Below are positions 9,000 to 57,044 of a stretch of DNA of 64,000 nt, piece by piece. Both the position numbers and the translations under genes were made by a program. Below the pieces are notes generated by a model that worked only from the letters and a program-made list of their open reading frames with translations, searched no databases and had not been told where the DNA came from. Origin of the DNA: Candidatus Onthoplasma sp. (lineage in GTDB: Bacteria; Bacillota; Clostridia; Christensenellales; UBA1242). Position 1 is the stretch's first letter. Every line of letters starts with the position of its first letter. The stretch spans positions 2,916-66,915 of the forward strand of contig JAZQYV010000017.1 in assembly GCA_045633705.1 (NCBI GenBank), in the 5' to 3' direction.

Positions 9000-9028
9000 T
9001 TGATTTTGCTTAAAAAAGATGTTAAAAT
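9000..9028 (+). promoter_or_regulatory. sigma-70-type promoter
   Basis: TTGATT (9000-9005), 17 nt, TAAAAT (9023-9028); predicted start just before element E1. Confidence 0.55.
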
Positions 9029-9042
9029 TATATCAAGTATTG

Positions 9043-9111
9043 CGCAAAGCAAAAGCTCAACAGCTTTATAAGGCATATTGTGCCTTGTTAGGCAAAGCCT
9101 CATGCTTTGCG
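9043..9111 (+). ncRNA. candidate structured element E1 (four-way junction, 5' leader of methyltransferase gene)
   Basis: 9-bp closing stem CGCAAAGCA/TGCTTTGCG enclosing hairpins 9052-9067, 9070-9086, 9090-9100; same architecture at 49454-49532 and 52098-52168. Confidence 0.45.
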
Positions 9112-9128
9112 TCTAAAGCGAGGATTTT

Positions 9129-9728
9129 ATGCAACATTATTTTATTGAAAAACAACACAAACCAAGTGATTATTTTGAATTTGAAGATGTGGTCGAGGAT
9201 ATGAAGTTAAAATTTCGTTCTTGTGATAGTATTTTTAGTAAGGATGAAATTGATATGGGCACACAAACCCTTTTAAACACAGTATTTGATAAGCTTGACC
9301 TTTCGGGCAATGGATTAGACTTGGGTTGCGGATATGGGGTTATTGGTATTTCAATTATTAAAAAATTAGGTCTTAATTGCGACATGGTAGATGTTAATGG
9401 CACAGCAGTTGATTTAGCATTACATAACTTGATGCTTAATGGCATTAGGGCGGGGGCAAATGTGTTTAAATCAAATGGTTTTGAAAGCGTACAAAACAAT
9501 TATGACTTTATTGTAACCAATCCACCAATTAAAACAGGCAAGAAACTTTTGTTTGAACTGATGGAAGGTTGTTTTAACCACTTAAATAATGGCGGAACCT
9601 TAACACTTGTAATACGTAAGGACCACGGCGAAGAAAGCCTTAAGAAAAAGCTAATTGAATTGTTTGGCAACTGCGAAATATTAAAACGTAACAAAGGGTT
9701 TTATATATTACACTGTATTAAACAATAA
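9129..9728 (+). CDS. class I SAM-dependent methyltransferase, RsmC/RlmG-type small domain
   Basis: 199 aa; motif I LDLGCGYGVIGI; motif IV DFIVTNPPI. Confidence 0.8.
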   Translation: MQHYFIEKQHKPSDYFEFEDVVEDMKLKFRSCDSIFSKDEIDMGTQTLLNTVFDKLDLSGNGLDLGCGYGVIGISIIKKLGLNCDMVDVNGTAVDLALHNLMLNGIRAGANVFKSNGFESVQNNYDFIVTNPPIKTGKKLLFELMEGCFNHLNNGGTLTLVIRKDHGEESLKKKLIELFGNCEILKRNKGFYILHCIKQ

Positions 9729-10867: not shown

Positions 10868-11800
10868 ATGAGCAAACCAACAAGTTCTATATTAAAGGAT
10901 AGGCTAAAAAGGGTGAGGATTGCCACCATTACGGGAGTTATGGCTGTTAGTGTGGTTATGGGTGCTGTGGCGTGCAATACATTAAGCGATATTACTGGTA
11001 GCAAAACAAGCCAATCGCATACAAAAAATATATCAACTGAAGAAGCTTACGCAAACTTGCAAGAAGTAAGAAAAACACAACTTGAAACACATGTTGTTAC
11101 GTGGACCGAAGAAGATGGCTCAAAAGCAAAGTATTTACAAGCAAATGAAGAAGATGTACTTGAATTAAGCAAAGATATGAGTGTTGCTATTGAAGATTAT
11201 TTTAAGGCTTGCGGTGCAACCGACTGGGTAAGTGATAAGGAAGAACAATTCTGGCCAGAAGATATTGAGTATATTGTAACAGCAATTGCATTTAATGAAA
11301 GCAGTTATCGTACTAATTGTATGAATGATGGTGGCAAGGCTGGAATTACTGGAATATATAAGAGTTCGTTGTTGAAAACTTTAGACACACAATGGCTTAT
11401 TCCACGAATTTGGGGAAATACGATTCCTCAAGTTAATTGCAATCCTAAAGAAGTTGATATATTTAATCCCACAACTTGTTTGGAACTTACCTATGAAAAT
11501 ATAGGTTATAATTTAGCAAACAGGTTTAAGGAAGATAAAGATTTTATTGACATTGATGGCCAGAAGAAGTGTGTTTGGGACATGCTGGAGTATAGTGAAG
11601 AATTGCAAATACGTTTAGTTGTTGCTGCGCATAGATTCGGGTTGGGGAATGTTATAAATTCGATATATGGCAGAAATTATAACGAGGAAGAAAAACGATA
11701 TGTGCCAATAGAAGAGTATATTTATGGCGGTTATGTAAACAGCGTTATGGAAAAGGCGTTAGAGCTTGAACAAACCTACGGACAGGGTTTTGCCTATTAA
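10868..11800 (+). CDS. lytic-transglycosylase-like (SLT-type) lipoprotein or anchored protein
   Basis: N-terminal hydrophobic segment ending GAVAC. AIAFNESSY...GKAGITGI resembles the SLT E-S catalytic motif plus GxxGLMQ; AAHRFGLGNV resembles AYNAGxGN. Confidence 0.55.
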   Translation: MSKPTSSILKDRLKRVRIATITGVMAVSVVMGAVACNTLSDITGSKTSQSHTKNISTEEAYANLQEVRKTQLETHVVTWTEEDGSKAKYLQANEEDVLELSKDMSVAIEDYFKACGATDWVSDKEEQFWPEDIEYIVTAIAFNESSYRTNCMNDGGKAGITGIYKSSLLKTLDTQWLIPRIWGNTIPQVNCNPKEVDIFNPTTCLELTYENIGYNLANRFKEDKDFIDIDGQKKCVWDMLEYSEELQIRLVVAAHRFGLGNVINSIYGRNYNEEEKRYVPIEEYIYGGYVNSVMEKALELEQTYGQGFAY

Positions 11801-11886: not shown

Positions 11887-11892
11887 AATATT

Positions 11893-12012
11893 ACCATAAA
11901 GAGTGCGTAAGGGACAGCCCCGTTGACCGCACGGCAACCTGCATATGTAAGGTGCCAAAGGCTGAATGATGGGTTTATTAGTAGGAAATCCATCTAACGA
12001 TGGCTTTTTTTA
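11893..12012 (+). promoter_or_regulatory. SAM riboswitch (SAM-I core with SAM-IV-like 3' side, i.e. SAM-I/IV type) with terminator expression platform
   Basis: AAGAG-UGCG-UAAGGGACAGCCCCGUUGAC-CGCA-CGGCAACCU...AGGUGCCAAAGGCUGAAUGAUGG matches the SAM-I core (GGGA..GCCC..UGA, GGCAACC...GGUGCC). GGCUG can pseudoknot with CAGCC. P1 is CCAU/AUGG. The 3' P1 strand GAUGG competes for CCAUC of the terminator CCATC-taac-GATGG + T7. Confidence 0.7.
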
Positions 12013-12394: not shown

Positions 12395-12645
12395 CTTTCG
12401 GTATCTTAATAAATCGTAGATTATAGACAAGTAGGCTATTAATCAACTGTTACAGAGAGTTCCCTGCAGGCTGAGATTGGGGCATAGTATTAATAATTGA
12501 AACCACTATATGAGATTTGACGTTAGGGAATAGTCCTAAAAATTGAGAGAATTAATACGCTATTTTATAGTGATTAGTTAAATAAGGTGGAACCGCGAGG
12601 AATATCGTCCTTATGTTGTTGCATAAGGGCGATATTTTTATTTTG
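12395..12645 (+). promoter_or_regulatory. T-box leader, threonine specifier (ACC)
   Basis: AG box AGAGAG (12453-58), GCUGAGA distal motif (12470-76), specifier loop GAA-ACC-A (ACC 12502-04), F-box-like CGUUA (12521-25), T-box AAUAAGGUGGAACCGCG (12581-97), 14-bp terminator 12602-12635 + U-run. Confidence 0.85.
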
Positions 12646-13833: not shown

Positions 13834-15624
13834 ATGGAAGAAAAAGATTTAGAAAAAGTAAAAGAATTACAACAAAAACAAGAAATGTATCGTCATAGTA
13901 TGAGCCATGTGCTTGCTAAGGCAATCAAAAGCATTTGGGGCGATGTAAAGTTGGCAATAGGACCTGCTATTGACAATGGTTTTTACTATGATATAGATAT
14001 GGAACAATCAATTAAGCCAGAAGATTTTGGCAAGATTGAAGACAAAATGCGTGAAATTATATGCAATAACGAAGATTTTGTACGTTTTGAACTAAGTAAG
14101 GAAGAGGCGTTGGAAAAGTTTAAGGACAATCCTTATAAAGTAGAATTGATTAATGAACTACCTGAAGGCGAACTTATTACAATGTATCGCACTGGCGATG
14201 ATTTTTATGATTTGTGTAGAGGATCACACGTAGAAAATACTAAATTTTTGCGTGGATTTGCTTATAAAATTAATCGTGTAAGCGGTGCTTACTGGCGTGG
14301 TAGCGAAAAGAATAAGATGTTACAACGTGTATATGTTTATGGTTTCCTAGACAAAAATGACCTTAAAGCATATATTCATCAAATGGAAGAAGCCCTAAAG
14401 CGCGACCATAACAAGTTGGGTAGAGAATTAGGCTTGTTTACAACTGTTGACTATATCGGCCAAGGTTTACCAATCTTGTTACCAAAGGGTGCAAGAATAG
14501 TTCAATTACTACAACGTTTTGTTGAAGATGAAGAACAAAAGCGTGGCTGGTTGTTAACCAAAACACCATTTATGGCAAAGAGTGACTTGTACAAGATTTC
14601 TGGCCACTGGGACCACTATAAAGATGGTATGTTTGTGTTGGGTGACGAAAATAAGGATAAGGAAGTGTTTGCACTTCGCCCTATGACTTGTCCTTTCCAA
14701 TATCAAGCATATTTAAATCAACCAAGGTCTTACAAAGATTTACCACTAAGATATAACGAAACTTCTACACTATTTAGAAATGAAGAAAGTGGCGAAATGC
14801 ATGGACTAATTCGTGTACGTCAATTTACAATTAGTGAAGGTCACTTAATGTGCACGCCTGACCAATTAGAAGATGAATTTAAGCGTTGCCTAGAACTAGC
14901 AATCTATATGCTTAAAACTTTGGGATTGTACGAAGACGCATCTTATCGTTTCTCACAATGGGACCCAGATAATCGTGCAAAATATATTGGTACTGATGAA
15001 CAATGGACGGCAGCTCAAGACAGCATGAAACGCATACTTGATAATCTTCAAGTTCCATATGAAATTGGTGTAGGGGAAGCGGCTTTCTACGGACCTAAAT
15101 TAGACATTCAAATCCGTAACGTTTGGGGCAAGGAAGATACGCTTATTACTATTCAAATTGACCAACTGCTTGCTGAAAAGTTTGGTATGGAATATACTGA
15201 TAGCGATGGAACTAAGAAACATCCTTACATCATTCATCGTACAAGTATTGGTTGCTATGAACGTACTTTGGCGTATCTAATTGAAAAATATGCAGGCGCA
15301 TTCCCAACATGGTTGGCTCCAAATCAAGTTAAGGTTATTACCGTTAGCGAAAAGAATAATGAGTATGCTGTTAGGGTGGCGGAAGAATTAAGTGCTTGTG
15401 GACTACGTGTTGAAACTGACCTAGATAACGAAAGTGTTGGTAAAAAGATTCGTAGTGCTGTTATGGAAAAGAACCCATATATTTTGATTCTTGGCGACAG
15501 AGAAATGGAAGAAGGAACCGTTGCTGTGCGTAAGCGTGGCAGTCAAGAAACAACTGCTATGAGCCTGGCTGAATTTAAGGCGGAAATCTTAAACAACATT
15601 GCAACCAAAAGTTTAACAGTTTAA
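13834..15624 (+). CDS. thrS: threonine--tRNA ligase, lacking the N-terminal TGS domain
   Basis: 596 aa; starts at the editing domain (HSMSHVLAKAI...AIGPAIDNGFYYD); class II motifs FRNEESGEMHGLIRVRQFTISEGH and anticodon-binding C-terminus. Confidence 0.95.
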   Translation: MEEKDLEKVKELQQKQEMYRHSMSHVLAKAIKSIWGDVKLAIGPAIDNGFYYDIDMEQSIKPEDFGKIEDKMREIICNNEDFVRFELSKEEALEKFKDNPYKVELINELPEGELITMYRTGDDFYDLCRGSHVENTKFLRGFAYKINRVSGAYWRGSEKNKMLQRVYVYGFLDKNDLKAYIHQMEEALKRDHNKLGRELGLFTTVDYIGQGLPILLPKGARIVQLLQRFVEDEEQKRGWLLTKTPFMAKSDLYKISGHWDHYKDGMFVLGDENKDKEVFALRPMTCPFQYQAYLNQPRSYKDLPLRYNETSTLFRNEESGEMHGLIRVRQFTISEGHLMCTPDQLEDEFKRCLELAIYMLKTLGLYEDASYRFSQWDPDNRAKYIGTDEQWTAAQDSMKRILDNLQVPYEIGVGEAAFYGPKLDIQIRNVWGKEDTLITIQIDQLLAEKFGMEYTDSDGTKKHPYIIHRTSIGCYERTLAYLIEKYAGAFPTWLAPNQVKVITVSEKNNEYAVRVAEELSACGLRVETDLDNESVGKKIRSAVMEKNPYILILGDREMEEGTVAVRKRGSQETTAMSLAEFKAEILNNIATKSLTV

Positions 15625-48524: not shown

Positions 48525-48556
48525 AAAAAATGATGAGAATAACTCATCTTTTTTTG
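48525..48556. terminator. bidirectional rho-independent terminator between convergent genes
   Basis: AAAAAA-TGATGAG-aataa-CTCATC-TTTTTTT. Confidence 0.8.
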
Positions 48557-48562
48557 TGCTTA

Positions 48563-49111
48563 TTAATTATATAATGTTATCTTTTTTAAATCATTTTCAT
48601 TAAATTTTTCAACCCAAATTATATCTTTTTTAAAGCTATATTCTTCATTGTTGTATAGGTTAATTATAATATATGGATATGCAGAAAGTTTGTTAAATTT
48701 TGTAATGTTTTTATCATCAATATAAGCAAAACATTTATGGCTATTGTTTACAATAAATTGACGTGTTAAAAATGTTTTTTCTTCCAAAGTTTGACTTTCG
48801 GCGTATATATAAATTAATTGCTCGTTTGCATATTTTTGTAATAATATTTGATATTGCTCGGGATTTTTAATTATATCAATATCGGTTAAAACTATTTTGA
48901 TGCTAATATTTTTACTTTTGTATCGTTTTTGTAAGTGTTTGCATGTTTTAAATGTAATATTGTCAAATTCATTGTTGGCACCAATTATAAAGGAGTTTAC
49001 TCCGTTGTGTATGGCATTTATGAAATGGCTTTCTAAATCTTTTTTTAGTATATTTGGTACAAATATTAAATTTTCATCACTTAAAACCCCATAACATTTT
49101 TCATTTAACAT
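48563..49111 (-). CDS. hypothetical protein (weak resemblance to YpsA/DUF1273 SLOG-type proteins)
   Basis: 182 aa; one of the few minus-strand genes; AAGGAGA RBS; strong own promoter. Confidence 0.5.
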   Translation of the reverse strand: MLNEKCYGVLSDENLIFVPNILKKDLESHFINAIHNGVNSFIIGANNEFDNITFKTCKHLQKRYKSKNISIKIVLTDIDIIKNPEQYQILLQKYANEQLIYIYAESQTLEEKTFLTRQFIVNNSHKCFAYIDDKNITKFNKLSAYPYIIINLYNNEEYSFKKDIIWVEKFNENDLKKITLYN

Positions 49112-49143
49112 AAATTTTTCTCCTTAAGTTTTAAAATCACCTA

Positions 49144-49188
49144 ATTGACTATAATTCAATTATAGCGAATGTCAGTCAATTAGTCAAT
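49144..49188. promoter_or_regulatory. candidate operator: inverted repeat plus palindrome in divergent promoter region
   Basis: ATTGACTA (49144-51) ... TAGTCAAT (49181-88); internal palindrome TATAATTcAATTATA (49150-64); direct GTCAAT repeats. Confidence 0.45.
49159..49187 (-). promoter_or_regulatory. sigma-70-type promoter for 48563-49111
   Basis: Minus strand reads TTGACT, 17 nt, TATAAT. Confidence 0.7.
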
Positions 49189-49228
49189 GAGTTTTTCGTA
49201 ATAAAATTTACATAGAAGGAGTTTTGTT

Positions 49229-49432
49229 ATGAAATTTGAAACTTTTGGTTTAAATGTTGCTAAACATAGGATAAAAAATAATTTATCTGCGTATGAATTA
49301 AGTTTAAGGTTAGGTAAAGATGCAAGTTATATAAACAAACTTGAAAATGCCAAAATAAACCCTAGCTTAAAAATGATGATAGCAATTAGTGAGAATTTAA
49401 AATTAAATATATGTGATTTATTTAAGGAATGA
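49229..49432 (+). CDS. XRE-family helix-turn-helix transcriptional regulator
   Basis: 67 aa; NLSAYELSLRLGKDASYINKLENAKINPSLKMMIAISENLKLNICDLF. Confidence 0.8.
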   Translation: MKFETFGLNVAKHRIKNNLSAYELSLRLGKDASYINKLENAKINPSLKMMIAISENLKLNICDLFKE

Positions 49433-49453
49433 AAACATATAGTATAATAGGGG

Positions 49454-49532
49454 CGGAGTCGGGAGCAAATTTTGCAAGCAAAATTTTGTATCGCGTAAGC
49501 GATTGGCAAGGCGGAGCCTTGCGCTCCCTCCG
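49454..49532 (+). ncRNA. candidate structured element E3 (four-way junction)
   Basis: Closing stem CGGA-(gtc)-GGGAGC / GCTCCC-TCCG. Hairpins 49467-49486 (AAATTTTGC..GCAAAATTT), 49490-49503 (ATCGC-gtaa-GCGAT) and 49506-49522 (GCAAGGC-gga-GCCTTGC). Confidence 0.45.
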
Positions 49533-49670
49533 TATTGTAAAATGATATATTTATTAGGTGTAGCAATGATATTGGATAGATTGAATTGTGGAGTAAAGCA
49601 ACAAATTGTTGCACTAAATTTTTGATTGTAGGAAAGTATCAACTGAATTTTGTAATTCAGGGAGATTTTA

Positions 49671-49718
49671 GTAACTATTTTTAAGTTATTGCACTTAAAA
49701 TAGTTGCTATTTTTTTTG
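49671..49718 (+). terminator. strong rho-independent terminator
   Basis: 14-bp stem GTAACTATTTTTAAG / CTTAAAATAGTTGC with one bulge, followed by TATTTTTTTT. Confidence 0.8.
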
Positions 49719-51179: not shown

Positions 51180-52079
51180 ATGAAAAAAAGAGCAATTTCC
51201 AGCATATTTATTATGCTTGCAATAATTTTGGCAATTGCATCAAAATTTTTAATGGCGGAAATATTTGATATATTTGTAGCCGTTGTTGGTATCGTTGGAG
51301 CAGTAGAGATGTGCAACATTATGGACAAGCGTGGGATTAAAGTTAGCAGATTTTTAAGTAGTATGTTTATAGTGGCCCTATATCTAGCTATAACTATTGC
51401 TATTAATACAACAGTAGAATTGCATATTGCATTGCTATATATGCTAGATGCATTTATTATTTACAGTTTTGTAATATTTGTATATGAGACAATTATTACC
51501 AAGGAAGATAGATTTACAGAGGCTATGAGGGTAACACTAAACTCATTAAAGGTTATGGTTTATCCAGGCTTGTTGTTATCGGTGTTCTTTATTATAAATC
51601 ACATTGAAGTATTTAGTACGGTGGCGGTTACTGTGCCATATTTGTCATTTATTTTGATTGTGTTTATATGGGGCATAGCGCTACTTAGCGATACATTTGC
51701 ATATCTTGTTGGCTCTACTTTACGTGGACCAAAACTTTGTCCTAAAATTAGCCCTAATAAAAGTTGGAGCGGGGCAATTGGTGGCGTGATTGGTGGTGTA
51801 TTGATGGGTGTTATAACCTATTTGATTATTAAGAACGTGCCAAGTATGAGTGCCATTTTAACTAGCACCGATATTAATCTTGCATGGTTGATGGTGTTGG
51901 GCGGATTAGGTTCTGCAGTAAGCCAAGTGGGTGACATATTTGAAAGTTGGTTAAAGCGTAGAGCGGGTGTTAAGGATTCGGGCAACTTTATGCCTGGTCA
52001 TGGCGGCATGCTTGACCGAGTAGATGCATTAATGTTCTGTTTGGTGTTTGTGGGCGGAATATTATTATTCTTAATTTAA
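51180..52079 (+). CDS. cdsA: phosphatidate cytidylyltransferase
   Basis: SDTFAYLVG, KRRAGVKDSGNFMPGHGGMLDRVD. Confidence 0.88.
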   Translation: MKKRAISSIFIMLAIILAIASKFLMAEIFDIFVAVVGIVGAVEMCNIMDKRGIKVSRFLSSMFIVALYLAITIAINTTVELHIALLYMLDAFIIYSFVIFVYETIITKEDRFTEAMRVTLNSLKVMVYPGLLLSVFFIINHIEVFSTVAVTVPYLSFILIVFIWGIALLSDTFAYLVGSTLRGPKLCPKISPNKSWSGAIGGVIGGVLMGVITYLIIKNVPSMSAILTSTDINLAWLMVLGGLGSAVSQVGDIFESWLKRRAGVKDSGNFMPGHGGMLDRVDALMFCLVFVGGILLFLI

Positions 52080-52097
52080 TAAAAAATAGGCGATGTG

Positions 52098-52168
52098 GGA
52101 CAAAGCGTGCGGCAATGCCGCACAAAATGCTGGCGCATTTAAATAGGCGTGTAGCCTTTGCTTTGTCC
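52098..52168 (+). ncRNA. candidate structured element E2 (four-way junction)
   Basis: 9-bp closing stem GGACAAAGC/GCTTTGTCC. Hairpins GTGCGGC-aat-GCCGCAC (52107-23), AAATGC-tggc-GCATTT (52125-40), AGGC-gtgta-GCCT (52145-57). Confidence 0.45.
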
Positions 52169-52239
52169 TTTATTATAAATAAGCAAAATTGTTCATATAA
52201 TTGGACAACTTTGTAATATAATAATATAAAGGAGTAAAC

Positions 52240-53367
52240 GTGAATTATTTATTATCAATAGGCTCGGTATTATCATATGGTTGGTATATTTTAGTAGCAA
52301 TTCTAGCATTGCTTTTGATGGTGATGATACACGAGTTTGGACACTATATTGCAGGGAAAATTTTAGGCTTTAAAATTAACGAATTTTCAGTTGGTTTTGG
52401 CCCTAAAATATTTCAAAAAAAGAAGAAAAATGGTGAAGTTTTTAGTCTTCGTACAATTCCATTAGGTGGTTATTGTGCATTTGATGGGGAGGACGAAAAA
52501 AGTGATAGCCCAACAGCATTTAATAATCAAAAAGCTTGGAAGCGTTTGATAGTTCTATTTATGGGTGCATTCTTTAACTTCCTATCAGCAATAATATTTT
52601 CATATATCTTGTTGGTAAGTTGTGGTTACGAGCACGTGCAAGTTAAAACTATGCAAAACACATCATTTCAATACCAGGTAGAAAACCACCTTGAAGTTGA
52701 TGACCGCATTTATGGTATTAATGGTACCGAATTTGATTTTGTATCAGATGATTATTTCAATAGCTTACTTGGAGATTATGTGCGTAATAATTTGGACTTT
52801 GAAGAGGACGGCTGGACAAGCGAGGGGGTACAATATAGCACAATACCACTAAATGTTGAACGTGATGGACAGAAGATTGTGGTTGATGGTGTGTTGCAAA
52901 AACAAGTTGTTGATGATGAAGAAGTTTGGAGTTTTGTATCAGTTGATGGGAACGAATTTCAACTTAAAACTTATCGTCATGGCTTTGTAGAAGCAATAGG
53001 TGAAAGCTTTACGTTTACTTGCCGTTGGGCTGTAAAAATTATGATAATACTGGGTGATTTATTTACCGGTCAATTATCAATAAAATCATTAGGTGGGCCA
53101 GTAACAACAATTAAGGTTATGGCAGAAACCACACAACAAAGTTATAGCTACTTACTACTATTGTTGCCAGTAATTGCAGTAAATTTGGCGGTATTTAATC
53201 TACTTCCAATACCTAGCTTGGATGGTGCGCGTATGGTGTTTGTTGGTATTGAAATGGTTAGACGTAAACCAATCAATCGTGATGTTGAAGCATATATTCA
53301 TGGATTTGGATTATTGTTACTGCTAGGATTTGTGGTAGTGGTAGACATTTTGCAGTTTGTCCTGTAA
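52240..53367 (+). CDS. rseP: RIP metalloprotease RseP (M50)
   Basis: GTG start 5 nt after AAAGGAG; HEFGHY in TM1, NLLPIPSLDGARM near C-terminus. Confidence 0.85.
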   Translation: MNYLLSIGSVLSYGWYILVAILALLLMVMIHEFGHYIAGKILGFKINEFSVGFGPKIFQKKKKNGEVFSLRTIPLGGYCAFDGEDEKSDSPTAFNNQKAWKRLIVLFMGAFFNFLSAIIFSYILLVSCGYEHVQVKTMQNTSFQYQVENHLEVDDRIYGINGTEFDFVSDDYFNSLLGDYVRNNLDFEEDGWTSEGVQYSTIPLNVERDGQKIVVDGVLQKQVVDDEEVWSFVSVDGNEFQLKTYRHGFVEAIGESFTFTCRWAVKIMIILGDLFTGQLSIKSLGGPVTTIKVMAETTQQSYSYLLLLLPVIAVNLAVFNLLPIPSLDGARMVFVGIEMVRRKPINRDVEAYIHGFGLLLLLGFVVVVDILQFVL

Positions 53368-53451
53368 GTGTAGTGTATTTAAATAAATAAAGAAATATAG
53401 CCATATATCTTGTACAACGTAATGGTATAACGATGCTGTAGGTGTAAAATA

Positions 53452-53485
53452 AAAACAAAGTGTAAAAAATGCACTTTGTTTTTGA
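53452..53485 (+). terminator. rho-independent terminator
   Basis: AAAACAAAGTG-loop-CACTTTGTTTT. Confidence 0.8.
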
Positions 53486-53915: not shown

Positions 53916-53930
53916 TGATAAAAATTGTTA

Positions 53931-53960
53931 AATCAAGAGAAATTAATCTCTTGATTTTTT
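53931..53960 (+). terminator. rho-independent terminator
   Basis: AATCAAGAGA-aattaa-TCTCTTGATT followed by TTTT. Confidence 0.85.
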
Positions 53961-56822: not shown

Positions 56823-56914
56823 GGTTGTGGCTGTAAAAAAACGATTGAAAGGGCGATTTTGCATTAAAACAAACATAATTTTTAAATAAATTTAAAAAAG
56901 TTTATTAAAAACTA

Positions 56915-56943
56915 TTGTAAAATAATTAAAAGTGTGTTATTAT
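56915..56943 (+). promoter_or_regulatory. candidate promoter of the rimP-nusA-infB operon
   Basis: TTGTAA, 17 nt, TGtTATTAT; followed by 8-bp leader hairpin AGGAGTGG/CCACTCCT at 56957-56981. Confidence 0.45.
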
Positions 56944-57044
56944 AATAACGCAGAGTAGGAGTGGGCTTTAGGTCCACTCCTAATTGTTTGAATAAGGCAA
57001 TTTAGCCCTATTTAAACCAAATTTAAATTTAAAAGGATTTTTAT

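Follow-up and report, generated by a model that had tools for sequence, protein, structure and literature searches.

A four-way-junction element between cdsA and rseP of Candidatus Onthoplasma belongs to a small, lineage-restricted family and keeps its fold through in-place inversion

Several classes of small structured elements are known from bacterial intergenic DNA. REP/BIME sequences of Enterobacteria and Pseudomonas, including REPINs, are GC-rich, structured and intergenic, occur in either orientation and are patchily distributed (PMC3116915, PMC3184786). A REP typically lies just past a stop codon within an operon, is a single imperfect hairpin of 20-40 nt with a family consensus, and is present in hundreds of copies with a linked RAYT transposase. 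Bacterial MITEs with folded transcripts, specifically Correia, RUP, BOX and Bcr1, are small, non-coding, dispersed and lineage-specific, are often co-transcribed and can change mRNA stability or termination (reviewed in PMC10969869). Mobile/repeat sequence candidates (MRSC), recovered in ncRNA surveys of GC-rich IGRs, are GC-rich intergenic motifs of AT-rich genomes that are found in several copies and show covariation (PMC11109978). Two simpler comparisons are the intrinsic terminator, a simple stem-loop with a short loop whose GC-rich helix closes straight onto a U-rich tail, and the tRNA cloverleaf, which is likewise a four-way junction (about 71 nt) closed by a long terminal helix. The GC clusters and double-hairpin elements of fungal mitochondria are short, GC-rich, multi-hairpin elements of AT-rich intergenic DNA that are found in both orientations and are conserved in structure more than in sequence. 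In E. coli, REPs are said, after work by Newbury and co-workers in 1987, to stabilize upstream mRNA against 3' exonucleases and to be able to attenuate read-through.

The element described here, termed E2, is a 71-nt four-way junction (52098..52168, + strand) in the window, i.e. the whole 64,000-nt stretch of DNA analyzed, and is a member of a small lineage-restricted family in Candidatus Onthoplasma-like Christensenellales. The family resembles REP/BIME sequences in its GC-rich, structured, intergenic, either-orientation and patchy character and in its position, with four of its five loci lying 7-20 nt after a stop codon. However, its members are four-way junctions without a consensus beyond the junction-proximal pairs, about one copy per 25 kb was found in the DNA searched, and no RAYT gene was seen in the annotated parts. 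The family may share with intrinsic terminators a GC-rich helix that closes straight onto a U-rich tail 7-20 nt past a stop codon, but the interior of E2 is a branched 53 nt and its tail is modest, and a second family member, E1, is located in a 5' UTR. The size, the four-way junction and the long terminal helix are those of a tRNA, and the spacing is tRNA-like as well, hairpins H1 and H2 being 1 nt and H2 and H3 being 3-4 nt apart; family loops, however, are 3-6 nt in length compared with 7-9 nt in tRNAs and are without conserved D-, anticodon or T-loop bases or CCA. Like MRSC, the family consists of a GC-rich intergenic motif in several copies with covariation in an AT-rich genome, yet the dozens of sequence-similar copies and the nearby transposase or integrase genes usual for MRSC were not seen. 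Fungal mitochondrial GC clusters belong to an organelle and have another architecture, and nothing links them to the E2 family.

E2 separates cdsA (CTP_transf_1, 51180..52079, + strand, Pfam E = 3.9e-46) from rseP (Peptidase_M50, 52240..53367, + strand, GTG start, Pfam E = 2.6e-59). Its closing helix is formed by the 5' arm GGACAAAGC (52098..52106) and the 3' arm GCTTTGTCC (52160..52168), with an additional G52097.T52169 wobble pair possible, and encloses the hairpins H1 (GTGCGGC-aat-GCCGCAC, 52107..52123), H2 (AAATGC-tggc-GCATTT, 52125..52140) and H3 (AGGC-gtgta-GCCT, 52145..52157), all on the + strand. The coordinates and pairings given for E2 in an earlier note on this DNA were all found to be correct, as was its start 18 nt past the cdsA stop codon (52077-52079). 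The minimum free energy (MFE) fold of the element itself is the junction. When folded with its flanks (52090-52176), the + strand reaches -40.3 kcal/mol (z = -5.5) and the - strand -37.1 kcal/mol (z = -5.9), in both cases with none of 200 shuffles as good, and the covariance model R1 scores E2 at 78 bits. Directly abutting the closing helix is the U-rich tail TTTATTAT (52169..52176, + strand). Further downstream, a block of sequence, TTGGACAACTTTGTAATATAAT (52201..52222, + strand; by-eye alignment of 9 loci), is conserved upstream of rseP and is kept in the E2-less relatives L001 and L006 as well; being present with or without E2, it is not part of the element, and a simple promoter scan calls no sigma-70 promoter in it. 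The motif GGACAA recurs in this block and reads GTACAA in L007, L125, L139 and L140. Two ideas built on it were rejected, namely a palindromic operator split by the insertion and an alternative pairing of the E2 3' arm with the downstream GGACAA: the block does not covary with the closing stem and is not palindromic in all lineages. A small ORF running across E2 was also discarded, as the covarying H1 would scramble it.

Intact or decaying E2 is found in the cdsA-rseP spacer of 11 relatives whose RseP proteins are 84-95% identical to that of the window, starting 8-18 nt past the cdsA stop, and a remnant persists in a lineage with 77% identical RseP. In an alignment of 8 orthologs, 96.4% of pair cells are paired and both sides have changed at 6 pairs. 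The covariation score, 0.186, exceeds the shuffled mean of 0.105 and is reached by 0 of 500 shuffles (8 orthologs), and sliding the structure by 1-3 columns leaves only 32-51% of the same alignment paired. Compensatory double changes affect 4 of 6 pairs in H1, where all cells are paired, and 2 of 5 pairs in H3, whose stem is lengthened to AAAGGC/GCCTTT in most orthologs. The closing helix, invariant in each of its arms across all 8 aligned orthologs, and the H2 stem are unchanged, while third codon positions of rseP are only 64% identical. In the closest relatives found, L140 and L139, the H2 stem reads GATGC/GCATC, a compensatory change, and GGTGC/GCATC, with two G.U pairs on the sense strand, respectively. 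It should be noted that double changes in hairpins can also arise by arm-to-arm templated mutation of DNA, with no selection on RNA.

At four loci (L004, L125, L139 and L140) the interior of E2 is flipped within the two arms of the closing stem, and the flanks have not moved. The inversion shared by L004 and L125 is independent of that in L139 and L140, so that at least two events have taken place, and all helices are intact afterwards. Function therefore cannot depend on the order of the hairpins or on their loop sequences. The earlier note had reasoned that copies in both orientations with flanking duplications would speak for a mobile DNA element; both orientations do occur, in the unforeseen form of an interior that flips in place. 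The opposite outcome considered there, copies that are unique and lack conservation, is rejected. E2 is decaying in two lineages, L141 and L145, and absent from L001/L143, L006 and the more distant L146/L147. E2 is an old insert in the cdsA-rseP spacer whose shape is kept by selection, yet which is dispensable.

A scan of the window for folds with a closing stem and three hairpins yielded three outstanding cases, E1, E2 (core energy -36.1 kcal/mol) and E3, and no other such structures occur in it. E1 (9042..9112, + strand; detected by folding and R1) lies within the 5' UTR of a gene that begins with the ATG at 9129 and encodes a class I methyltransferase; it has MFE values of -29.4 to -31.4 kcal/mol, the window scan placing the fold at 9043-9111 (-29.4), and R1 E-values of 0.007 on the - strand and 0.025 on the + strand. 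It is missing at the same spot from 8 loci of 3 related lineages and is a window-specific insert. A promoter-like sequence, TTGATT-17-TAAAAT with a TG (9000..9028, + strand; promoter scan), would place E1 at about +8 of the transcript and is also kept in relatives without E1. E3 (49453..49533, + strand; detected by folding and R1) lies 20 nt past the stop codon of an Xre-type HTH ORF with an HTH_3 Pfam match. It has a core at 49461-49528 and an extended, bulged closing stem, with MFE values of -31.0 and -37.4 kcal/mol and an R1 E-value of 0.009. E3 is part of a window-specific 1.12-kb insertion (48556..49678) that also carries a YpsA-like SLOG gene on the - strand and the HTH gene on the + strand, and whose flanks adjoin each other in L001, L003-L006 and L008. 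At this locus L141 has a YpsA-like gene of 32% identity, and the variable YpsA/HTH island of L141 ends in a canonical terminator where the window has E3.

Together with copies following rnhB (L001/L143) and infC (L095), five independent loci are known: cdsA (E2), the methyltransferase 5' UTR (E1), the HTH ORF (E3), rnhB and infC, all but the 5' UTR being post-stop positions. Presence is patchy, E1 being found in the window genome only, the rnhB copy in L001/L143 only and the infC copy in L095 only. The elements are GC-rich islands of 67-88 nt in a genome of 34% GC, with closing helices of 6-13 bp around three short hairpins and 1-7 unpaired junction bases in MFE folds (2-4 in most copies). There are three copies in the 64-kb window and 0-1 per 10-21 kb in relatives. 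Closing stems differ among copies (GGACAAAGC, GCGCAAAGC, GGGAGC, GGGCTGAAAGC and GCGAAT), AGC...GCT being found in most and AAAGC in E2, E1 and the rnhB copy L001:700. The earlier note had matched E1 and E2 by a CAAAGC/GCTTTG stem and an AGGC/GCCT hairpin, both of which are real, and the AGGC/GCCT H3 stem extends to E3. The degenerate copy between infC and rpmI of L095 carries the same H2 stem as E2. Using blastn-short, no sequence similarity was detected among E1, E2, E3, L001:700 and the L095 copy. Relaxed scanning of 292 kb of clade DNA for four-way junctions gave 33 matches against 15 in a block-shuffled control; every match at or below -29 kcal/mol and shorter than 90 nt was a family member, and a coding-region match (L141:9725-9823, 99 nt, -34.8 kcal/mol) also passes on energy. 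GC-island analysis, the relaxed scan and R1 with filters off added nothing to the family except the degenerate L095 copy. Two GC islands, at 12.9 kb and 43.5 kb, resemble short coding regions, and one at 56.9 kb consists of three tandem hairpins without a closing stem.

A search of the whole window against Rfam 15 at the gathering threshold and at E <= 1 returned only a SAM riboswitch and a sub-threshold T-box, and positions 52000-52300 at E <= 10 gave only weak matches well under the gathering score of each family, the best at 22 bits against a cutoff of 45. ARAGORN found 0 tRNA or tmRNA genes in the window, and the E2 loops measure 3-5 nt. E2 had no blastn match in plasmids and phages. A pattern search for the closing stem yielded 18 loci in a viral collection, all chance matches without the fold, and 36 in a metagenome collection, of which only L125 was real, so the clade is barely represented in that collection. 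Nothing comparable in architecture was present in about 1.1 Mb of cdsA-rseP loci from outside the clade (distant Clostridia, Desulfosporosinus and others), and literature searches returned no description of such a four-way-junction element. An integron attC site was considered and rejected: the element ends in ...CAAAGC/GCTTTG... and has no GTTRRRY and no R''/R' boxes (RYYYAAC...GTTRRRY), and on the right the E3 island ends about 140 nt past E3 and not within it.

The sense fold is at least as stable as the antisense fold in 14 of 15 copies (equal in one), and 9 G.U pairs are found on the sense strand compared with 2 on the antisense strand, including the two in H2 of L139, which become A.C mismatches on the opposite strand. 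These sequence-based asymmetries favor the sense strand as the probable acting strand. The sense strand is also skewed toward G over C, which confounds its excess of G.U pairs. The tail of window E2 scores 4.33, the 99th percentile of window positions, and TTTATTAT closely resembles TTTATTATGT, the tail of a site at 53930-53957 that was flagged as terminator-like. Sense tails of E2 orthologs score 2.7-4.3 (background mean 2.24, 95th percentile 3.55), with 3.67 for L001:700, 4.07 for L145, 2.60 for E3 and 1.95 for E1. True T-runs follow L001:700 (GTTTTTT) and the L145 remnant (ATTTTTTT), and most E2 tails, e.g. TATTATAATG, are modestly U-rich within an AT-rich genome. The element-less L006 carries TTTTATTAT at the place of the E2 tail, so the tail may be mere pre-existing spacer. 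E1, whose position in a 5' UTR would make termination harmful, has a non-U tail. Canonical terminators, those of the window at 48532-48548 and 53450-53484 among them, consist of a simple hairpin with a 3-8-nt loop and a clear U-run, and pattern-based terminator scanning is blind to branched stems. The earlier note had seen no T-run after E2 and concluded that it is not a standard terminator; this holds for the shape of the element, whereas its tail is U-rich, though not a canonical U-run.

We hypothesize, tentatively and at somewhat less than even confidence, that E2 forms a structural RNA module at the 3' terminus of the cdsA transcript and works in either orientation as a leaky branched terminator or exonuclease barrier, with a REP-like history at the DNA level. 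E2 would be transcribed and act in the sense transcript purely by its structure. A leaky, branched intrinsic terminator, an obstacle to exonucleases degrading from the 3' end, or both, would be built from the long-range closing helix and the U-rich tail behind it, and cdsA would gain some insulation from rseP. By compacting the 53-nt interior, the three inner hairpins would allow the closing helix to form. At the DNA level, copies behave in a REP-type manner, being gained, lost and inverted in place between their arms, and decaying. A role of structure only leaves two observations unexplained, a closing helix that keeps its sequence instead of covarying and the recurrence of exactly three hairpins in unrelated copies. 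Further, the lineages that do without E2 and the two that let it decay speak against this reading. The earlier note had offered an RNA structure, a protein-binding site or a REP/MITE-like element. A structure-constrained element of a dispersed family is supported by the covariation among orthologs and the patchy paralogs at unrelated loci.

A rather unlikely alternative is that E2 is a purely selfish DNA-level repeat, REP/MITE-like or GC-cluster-like, that spreads or is copied into intergenic DNA, has no host function and persists through mutual correction of its hairpin arms. The scatter of GC-rich islands over five unrelated loci of a 34% GC genome with lineage-specific presence, the position of E3 inside a strain-specific island, the loss and decay of copies, the occurrence of both interior orientations and a TATAATA beside the GGG end of the closing stem at three loci, which could be a target preference, would all suit such a repeat. 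On the other hand, the paralogs are without sequence similarity and so are not recent copies of one master, their density in the DNA searched is low, the sequence examined showed no transposase or RAYT gene, and E2, its closing helix unchanged, has remained intact across a divergence that leaves synonymous sites only about 64% identical. The MITE version, for which the earlier note had proposed a search for flanking duplications, fails on several counts: conserved terminal inverted repeats, target-site duplications and inter-copy identity are features of MITEs, and none of these was found in this family, which has few copies in the DNA searched. No direct repeats were seen when filled and empty sites were compared at cdsA-rseP (L001/L006), at the methyltransferase (L095-L102) and at the rnhB 3' end. 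If E2 is selfish DNA, it would still be a tidy example of a structured repeat limited to one clade.

We consider it improbable that the elements represent an undescribed class of compact four-way-junction RNA modules that are selected for architecture and not for sequence, as tRNAs or terminators are, and serve as caps or punctuation of transcript ends. Were this true, the modules would be recognized by their shape, they might be read by an RNase or RNA-binding protein specific for junctions, some copying mechanism would have to yield divergent but isomorphic elements, and interiors could flip without loss of function.

Similarly doubtful is an independent small-RNA gene of about 75-90 nt, of tRNA-like size and, for E2, on the minus strand. 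Beyond the GGG end of the closing stem, at a distance of 1-9 nt, a -10-like TATAAT reads into the element, TATAATAGGG stands directly 5' of E3 and L001:700, and its reverse complement CCCTATTATA follows E2 in L003, L005, L007 and L141. A closing helix with a T-run would end such a transcript, as at the GTTTTTT of L001:700, and minus-strand E2 tails are T-rich in some orthologs, e.g. TTCGTTTTTTTT in L007. However, -10 look-alikes abound in AT-rich spacers, the hexamer is degraded to TATAAC or TTTAAT in several orthologs, and the element-less L006 has TTATTAT at the same place. There is no conserved -35 box and a simple scan calls no promoter at these sites. The antisense tail of window E2 scores only 1.71, and it is the sense strand that folds better and has more G.U pairs.

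To about the same low degree, E2 might be a structural site at the DNA level, either a cruciform or four-way junction or a set of three palindromes, bound by a junction-binding or sequence-specific protein or flipped by a recombinase. The folds of the two strands are nearly equal in stability, the sequence of the closing stem does not vary, the interior has repeatedly been inverted between 10-bp inverted arms, and GGACAA recurs in the block upstream of rseP. Yet the downstream GGACAA does not covary with the stem, the closing stems of paralogs differ in sequence, G.U pairs matter in RNA only, and an invertible segment of 53 bp is very short for recombinase synapsis. Compared with invertons, in which inverted repeats enclose a segment bearing a promoter, an invertase is nearby and populations are mixed in orientation, inverted arms and evolutionary flips are present in E2, with a 53-bp GC-rich hairpin segment that lacks a promoter, and no invertase was seen near the inverted segment in the sequence examined. 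Small hairpin-associated inversions arise without dedicated enzymes and are common in chloroplast spacers. Finally, a cis-regulator of rseP alone that senses a ligand or factor, as a riboswitch or attenuator does, and which the position upstream of rseP and the conserved structure might suggest, is very unlikely and largely refuted by the inversion and the paralog contexts: similar elements follow unrelated genes, the loops and hairpin order vary freely around an invertible interior (inverted at four loci), whereas a riboswitch or leader would have a fixed orientation and conserved unpaired nucleotides, almost no unpaired nucleotides are conserved here, E2 ends 71 nt before the start codon with the RBS (AGGAG, 52230-52234) untouched, and L001, L006 and L146 lack it.

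E2 is unusual rather than revolutionary and, on the likeliest reading, would be an RNA end-cap or weak stop signal. The family may serve as a study system in which a fold is kept while hairpins covary, a long-range helix is frozen and the interior flips repeatedly. Such elements are missed by terminator finders due to their loop-size limits and would be flagged as riboswitch-like candidates by GC-rich-IGR pipelines. The origin of isomorphic, sequence-unrelated copies is a question that standard transposition models do not answer. If the reading of E2 as a structural module of the cdsA transcript end is correct, an uncultured group of gut Christensenellales would use a branched, cloverleaf-like RNA where other bacteria use REPs or terminators, and this module would shape both 3' and 5' ends of operon transcripts.

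The 71-nt element E2 (52098-52168) lies in the spacer between cdsA (51180-52079) and rseP (52240-53367), the latter encoding an M50 site-2 protease; both gene identities, assigned from sequence in an earlier note, were borne out by Pfam. E2 reads GGACAAAGC, H1, A, H2, AAAT, H3, TT, GCTTTGTCC, where the terminal arms GGACAAAGC and GCTTTGTCC form a closing helix around the hairpins H1 (GTGCGGC-aat-GCCGCAC), H2 (AAATGC-tggc-GCATTT) and H3 (AGGC-gtgta-GCCT). The four-way junction proposed in the same note is real, as sequence and folding agree: it is the exact MFE fold of 52090-52176. The + strand of this segment folds at -40.3 kcal/mol (z = -5.5), equalled by none of 200 shuffles, and the reverse strand gives a nearly equal fold (-37.1 kcal/mol, z = -5.9).

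RseP-based retrieval identified the window organism as a relative of Candidatus Onthoplasma. Its relatives are Christensenellales MAGs from animal guts, all metagenome-assembled and compared as short loci against 64 kb of source genome. At the cdsA-rseP spacer, E2 is found in the window orientation in L002, L003, L005, L007, L008 and L141/L142 and with an inverted interior in L004, L125, L139 and L140. RNAalifold recovered the four-way junction from seven orthologs. In a covariance-model alignment of eight orthologs, standard pairs make up 96.4% of pair cells and six pairs are altered on both sides; the covariation score (0.186 vs a shuffled mean of 0.105) was reached by none of 500 shuffles, and control structures slid by 1-3 columns were only 32-51% paired. 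Covariation is seen in four of the six H1 pairs; the closing helix and H2 do not vary among these eight orthologs. H2 is compensatorily changed to GATGC/GCATC in L140 and reads GGTGC/GCATC in L139, a form with two G.U pairs confined to the sense strand. Because the genomes compared show just 64% identity at rseP third codon positions and the spacer sequence on either side of E2 defies alignment, E2 is, judging by these comparisons, under constraint. A lack of conservation, envisaged in the earlier note, is thus contradicted for E2 by a structure that is kept and covaries. Constraint has lapsed in L141, whose E2 has broken pairs and a score of 60 bits, as well as in L145 (RseP 77% identical), where an AT-rich remnant occupies the spacer. 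The element is absent from this spacer in L001/L143 (RseP 86-87%), L006 (82%) and L146/L147 (69%), and cases such as L001 and L006 make it clearly dispensable.

In L004/L125 and L139/L140 the hairpin order is reversed, with closing-stem arms and both flanks unaltered. As L139 and L140 are the nearest relatives found (RseP 95% and 93%) and L004 is more distant (84%), the E2 interior has flipped at least twice independently. Inverting perfect hairpins keeps all stems and changes only loops and hairpin order, so the function of E2, whatever that may be, tolerates such change. DNA that forms hairpins is known to give rise to small inversions where short inverted repeats flank a segment; a recombinase is unnecessary for these flips, yet possible.

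A covariance model trained on E2 orthologs only (R1) had as its best non-self matches in the window E1 (9042-9112; E = 0.007) and E3 (49453-49533; E = 0.009), and it found two further copies in relatives. One copy, in L001/L143, is 88 nt long and lies 20 nt after rnhB, with closing stem GGGCTGAAAGC...GCTTTCAGCCC followed by GTTTTTT. The other (L095:20133-20199), in the infC-rpmI spacer 7 nt past infC, is degenerate (-18 kcal/mol, 25 bits) and carries an E2-type H2 stem (GAATGC...GCATTT). No element follows rnhB in the window or occupies the 35-nt infC-rpmI spacer of L096, and eight loci from three related lineages lack E1 in the corresponding 5' UTR; every paralog is lineage-specific. No sequence similarity among paralogs was detected by blastn-short. 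Common to them are architecture, size and junction-proximal pairs, with AAAGC...GCTTT in three, and exactly three hairpins recur in copies without sequence relationship. Upstream of the iscS-nifU region, one related lineage carries a gene of ~640-666 aa (L099:794-2710, L100:227-2218, L101:1-2001) whose matches to HNH and HA domains are weak; the window, L095 and L096 lack it.

Scanning the 64-kb window for a perfect closing stem plus three hairpins gave three outliers, E1 (9043-9111, -29.4 kcal/mol), E3 (49461-49528, -31.0) and E2 (-36.1); the remaining matches are weak folds within coding sequence. A relaxed four-way-junction scan of 292 kb of clade DNA yielded 33 matches vs 15 in a block-shuffled control. 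At or below -29 kcal/mol and under 90 nt only family members were returned, the one longer exception being a coding-region match of 99 nt (L141:9725-9823, -34.8). Comparable elements were not found in more distant Clostridia or in viral contigs, plasmids or phages, and a metagenome scan returned a single additional E2 ortholog and no other family match. The 34% GC window also has no unexplained GC-rich non-coding island besides E1, E2 and E3, setting aside a SAM-I riboswitch (S box; 11891-11975, +; 48.5 bits, over the Rfam gathering score) just 3' of ORF 10868-11800 and a T-box leader match (12408-12615, +; 76 bits, E = 1.2e-14, under the family gathering score of 93) upstream of small ORFs ahead of thrS (13834-15624). 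Three strong hairpins in series (56933-57017, +; z = -4.5 for 56900-57044) immediately 5' of rimP-nusA-ylxR-infB have no closing stem and so fall outside the family; an operon leader or a terminator cluster is a possible identity. Almost every long ORF in the window (1-64000) is on the + strand and GC skew is positive in all 2-kb bins (0.07-0.36), a pattern compatible with a leading-strand segment remote from an origin or terminus switch.

E1 sits at a predicted ~+8 of the transcript from promoter TTGATT-17-TAAAAT, which is conserved in E1-less loci and there runs directly into the RBS. Within 9105-9123 (+), its 3' arm (CTTTGC) can pair alternatively with GCGAGG, which contains the Shine-Dalgarno of the methyltransferase gene, and the state of the helix could therefore influence translation initiation. 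E3 lies in a window-specific 1.12-kb insertion (48556-49678), flanked by the terminator of the L19 gene and by frr, together with a YpsA-like SLOG gene (48563-49111, - strand) and an Xre HTH gene (49229-49432). The corresponding locus of L141 holds a YpsA-like gene 32% identical and a different HTH gene, which suggests a variable accessory hotspot, perhaps toxin-antitoxin-like or defence-like. In L141, a canonical terminator closes the island at the position that E3 takes in the window.

Four of the five independent family loci, a small number for statements on position and tails, lie 7-20 nt past a stop codon; the fifth is at the 5' end of a UTR. True T-runs follow the L001 copy and the L145 remnant. 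E2 sense-strand tails score 2.7-4.3 on a scale of the d'Aubenton-Carafa type, for which the background has a mean of 2.24 and a 95th percentile of 3.55. The window tail TTTATTAT scores 4.33 and closely resembles that of a flagged terminator-like site (53930-53957), TTTATTATGT. The E1 tail scores 1.95, and termination at that location would be harmful. The sense strand is at least as stable as the antisense in 14 of 15 copies (equal in one), and G.U pairs number 9 sense vs 2 antisense, a count confounded by the G>C skew of the sense strand.

The 10-mer TATAATAGGG abuts the G-rich (GGG) closing-stem end at three independent loci: left of E3 (49443-49452), at L001:685-697 and, as its reverse complement CCCTATTATA, right of E2 in L003, L005, L007 and L141. 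It could be the -10 box of a small RNA, reflect a preferred insertion target or have arisen by chance in spacers rich in AT; no conserved -35 box lies nearby and a promoter scan was silent there. Upstream of rseP, the block TTGGACAACTTTGTAATATAAT (52201-52222, +) is kept in every relative, whether E2 is present or not, and is a perfect palindrome, TTGTACAAG, in L007, L125, L139 and L140. Its spacing does not fit a sigma-70 promoter; it may be an operator or alternative-sigma promoter for rseP.

Among known systems, REP/BIME elements come nearest in lifestyle and probable effect, and intrinsic terminators in position. Gain, loss and decay of E2 at the DNA level are, on our analysis, REP-like; canonical REPs differ in being single hairpins with a consensus, and the family has low copy number where sampled. 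The MITE half of the earlier REP/MITE-like proposal fails its defining tests: interiors are inverted in place, but no target-site duplications, conserved terminal repeats or copy identity were found. GC-rich-IGR surveys would class E2 as a 'mobile/repeat sequence candidate' (PMC11109978), although such candidates usually have sequence-similar copies or a transposase neighbour, and neither was seen here. E2 matches no Rfam family, and it lacks the defining features of tRNA-like elements, attC sites and riboswitches. Its variable loops and its independence of orientation also argue against a riboswitch, as they do against a base-pairing sRNA or a protein that reads the loops.

The closing-helix sequence is frozen, without covariation. 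Possibly compensation is easy in local hairpins and hard between arms 53 nt apart; possibly some factor reads the sequence. Position, tails, strand bias, the terminator substitution in L141, orientation independence and loop variability together lead us to favour, tentatively, a role at the ends of transcripts that E2 plays as RNA, through its structure alone. Between cdsA and rseP, E2 may act as a leaky branched terminator and/or exonuclease barrier; the part of the inner hairpins would be to make the 53-nt interior compact enough for the long-range helix to close.
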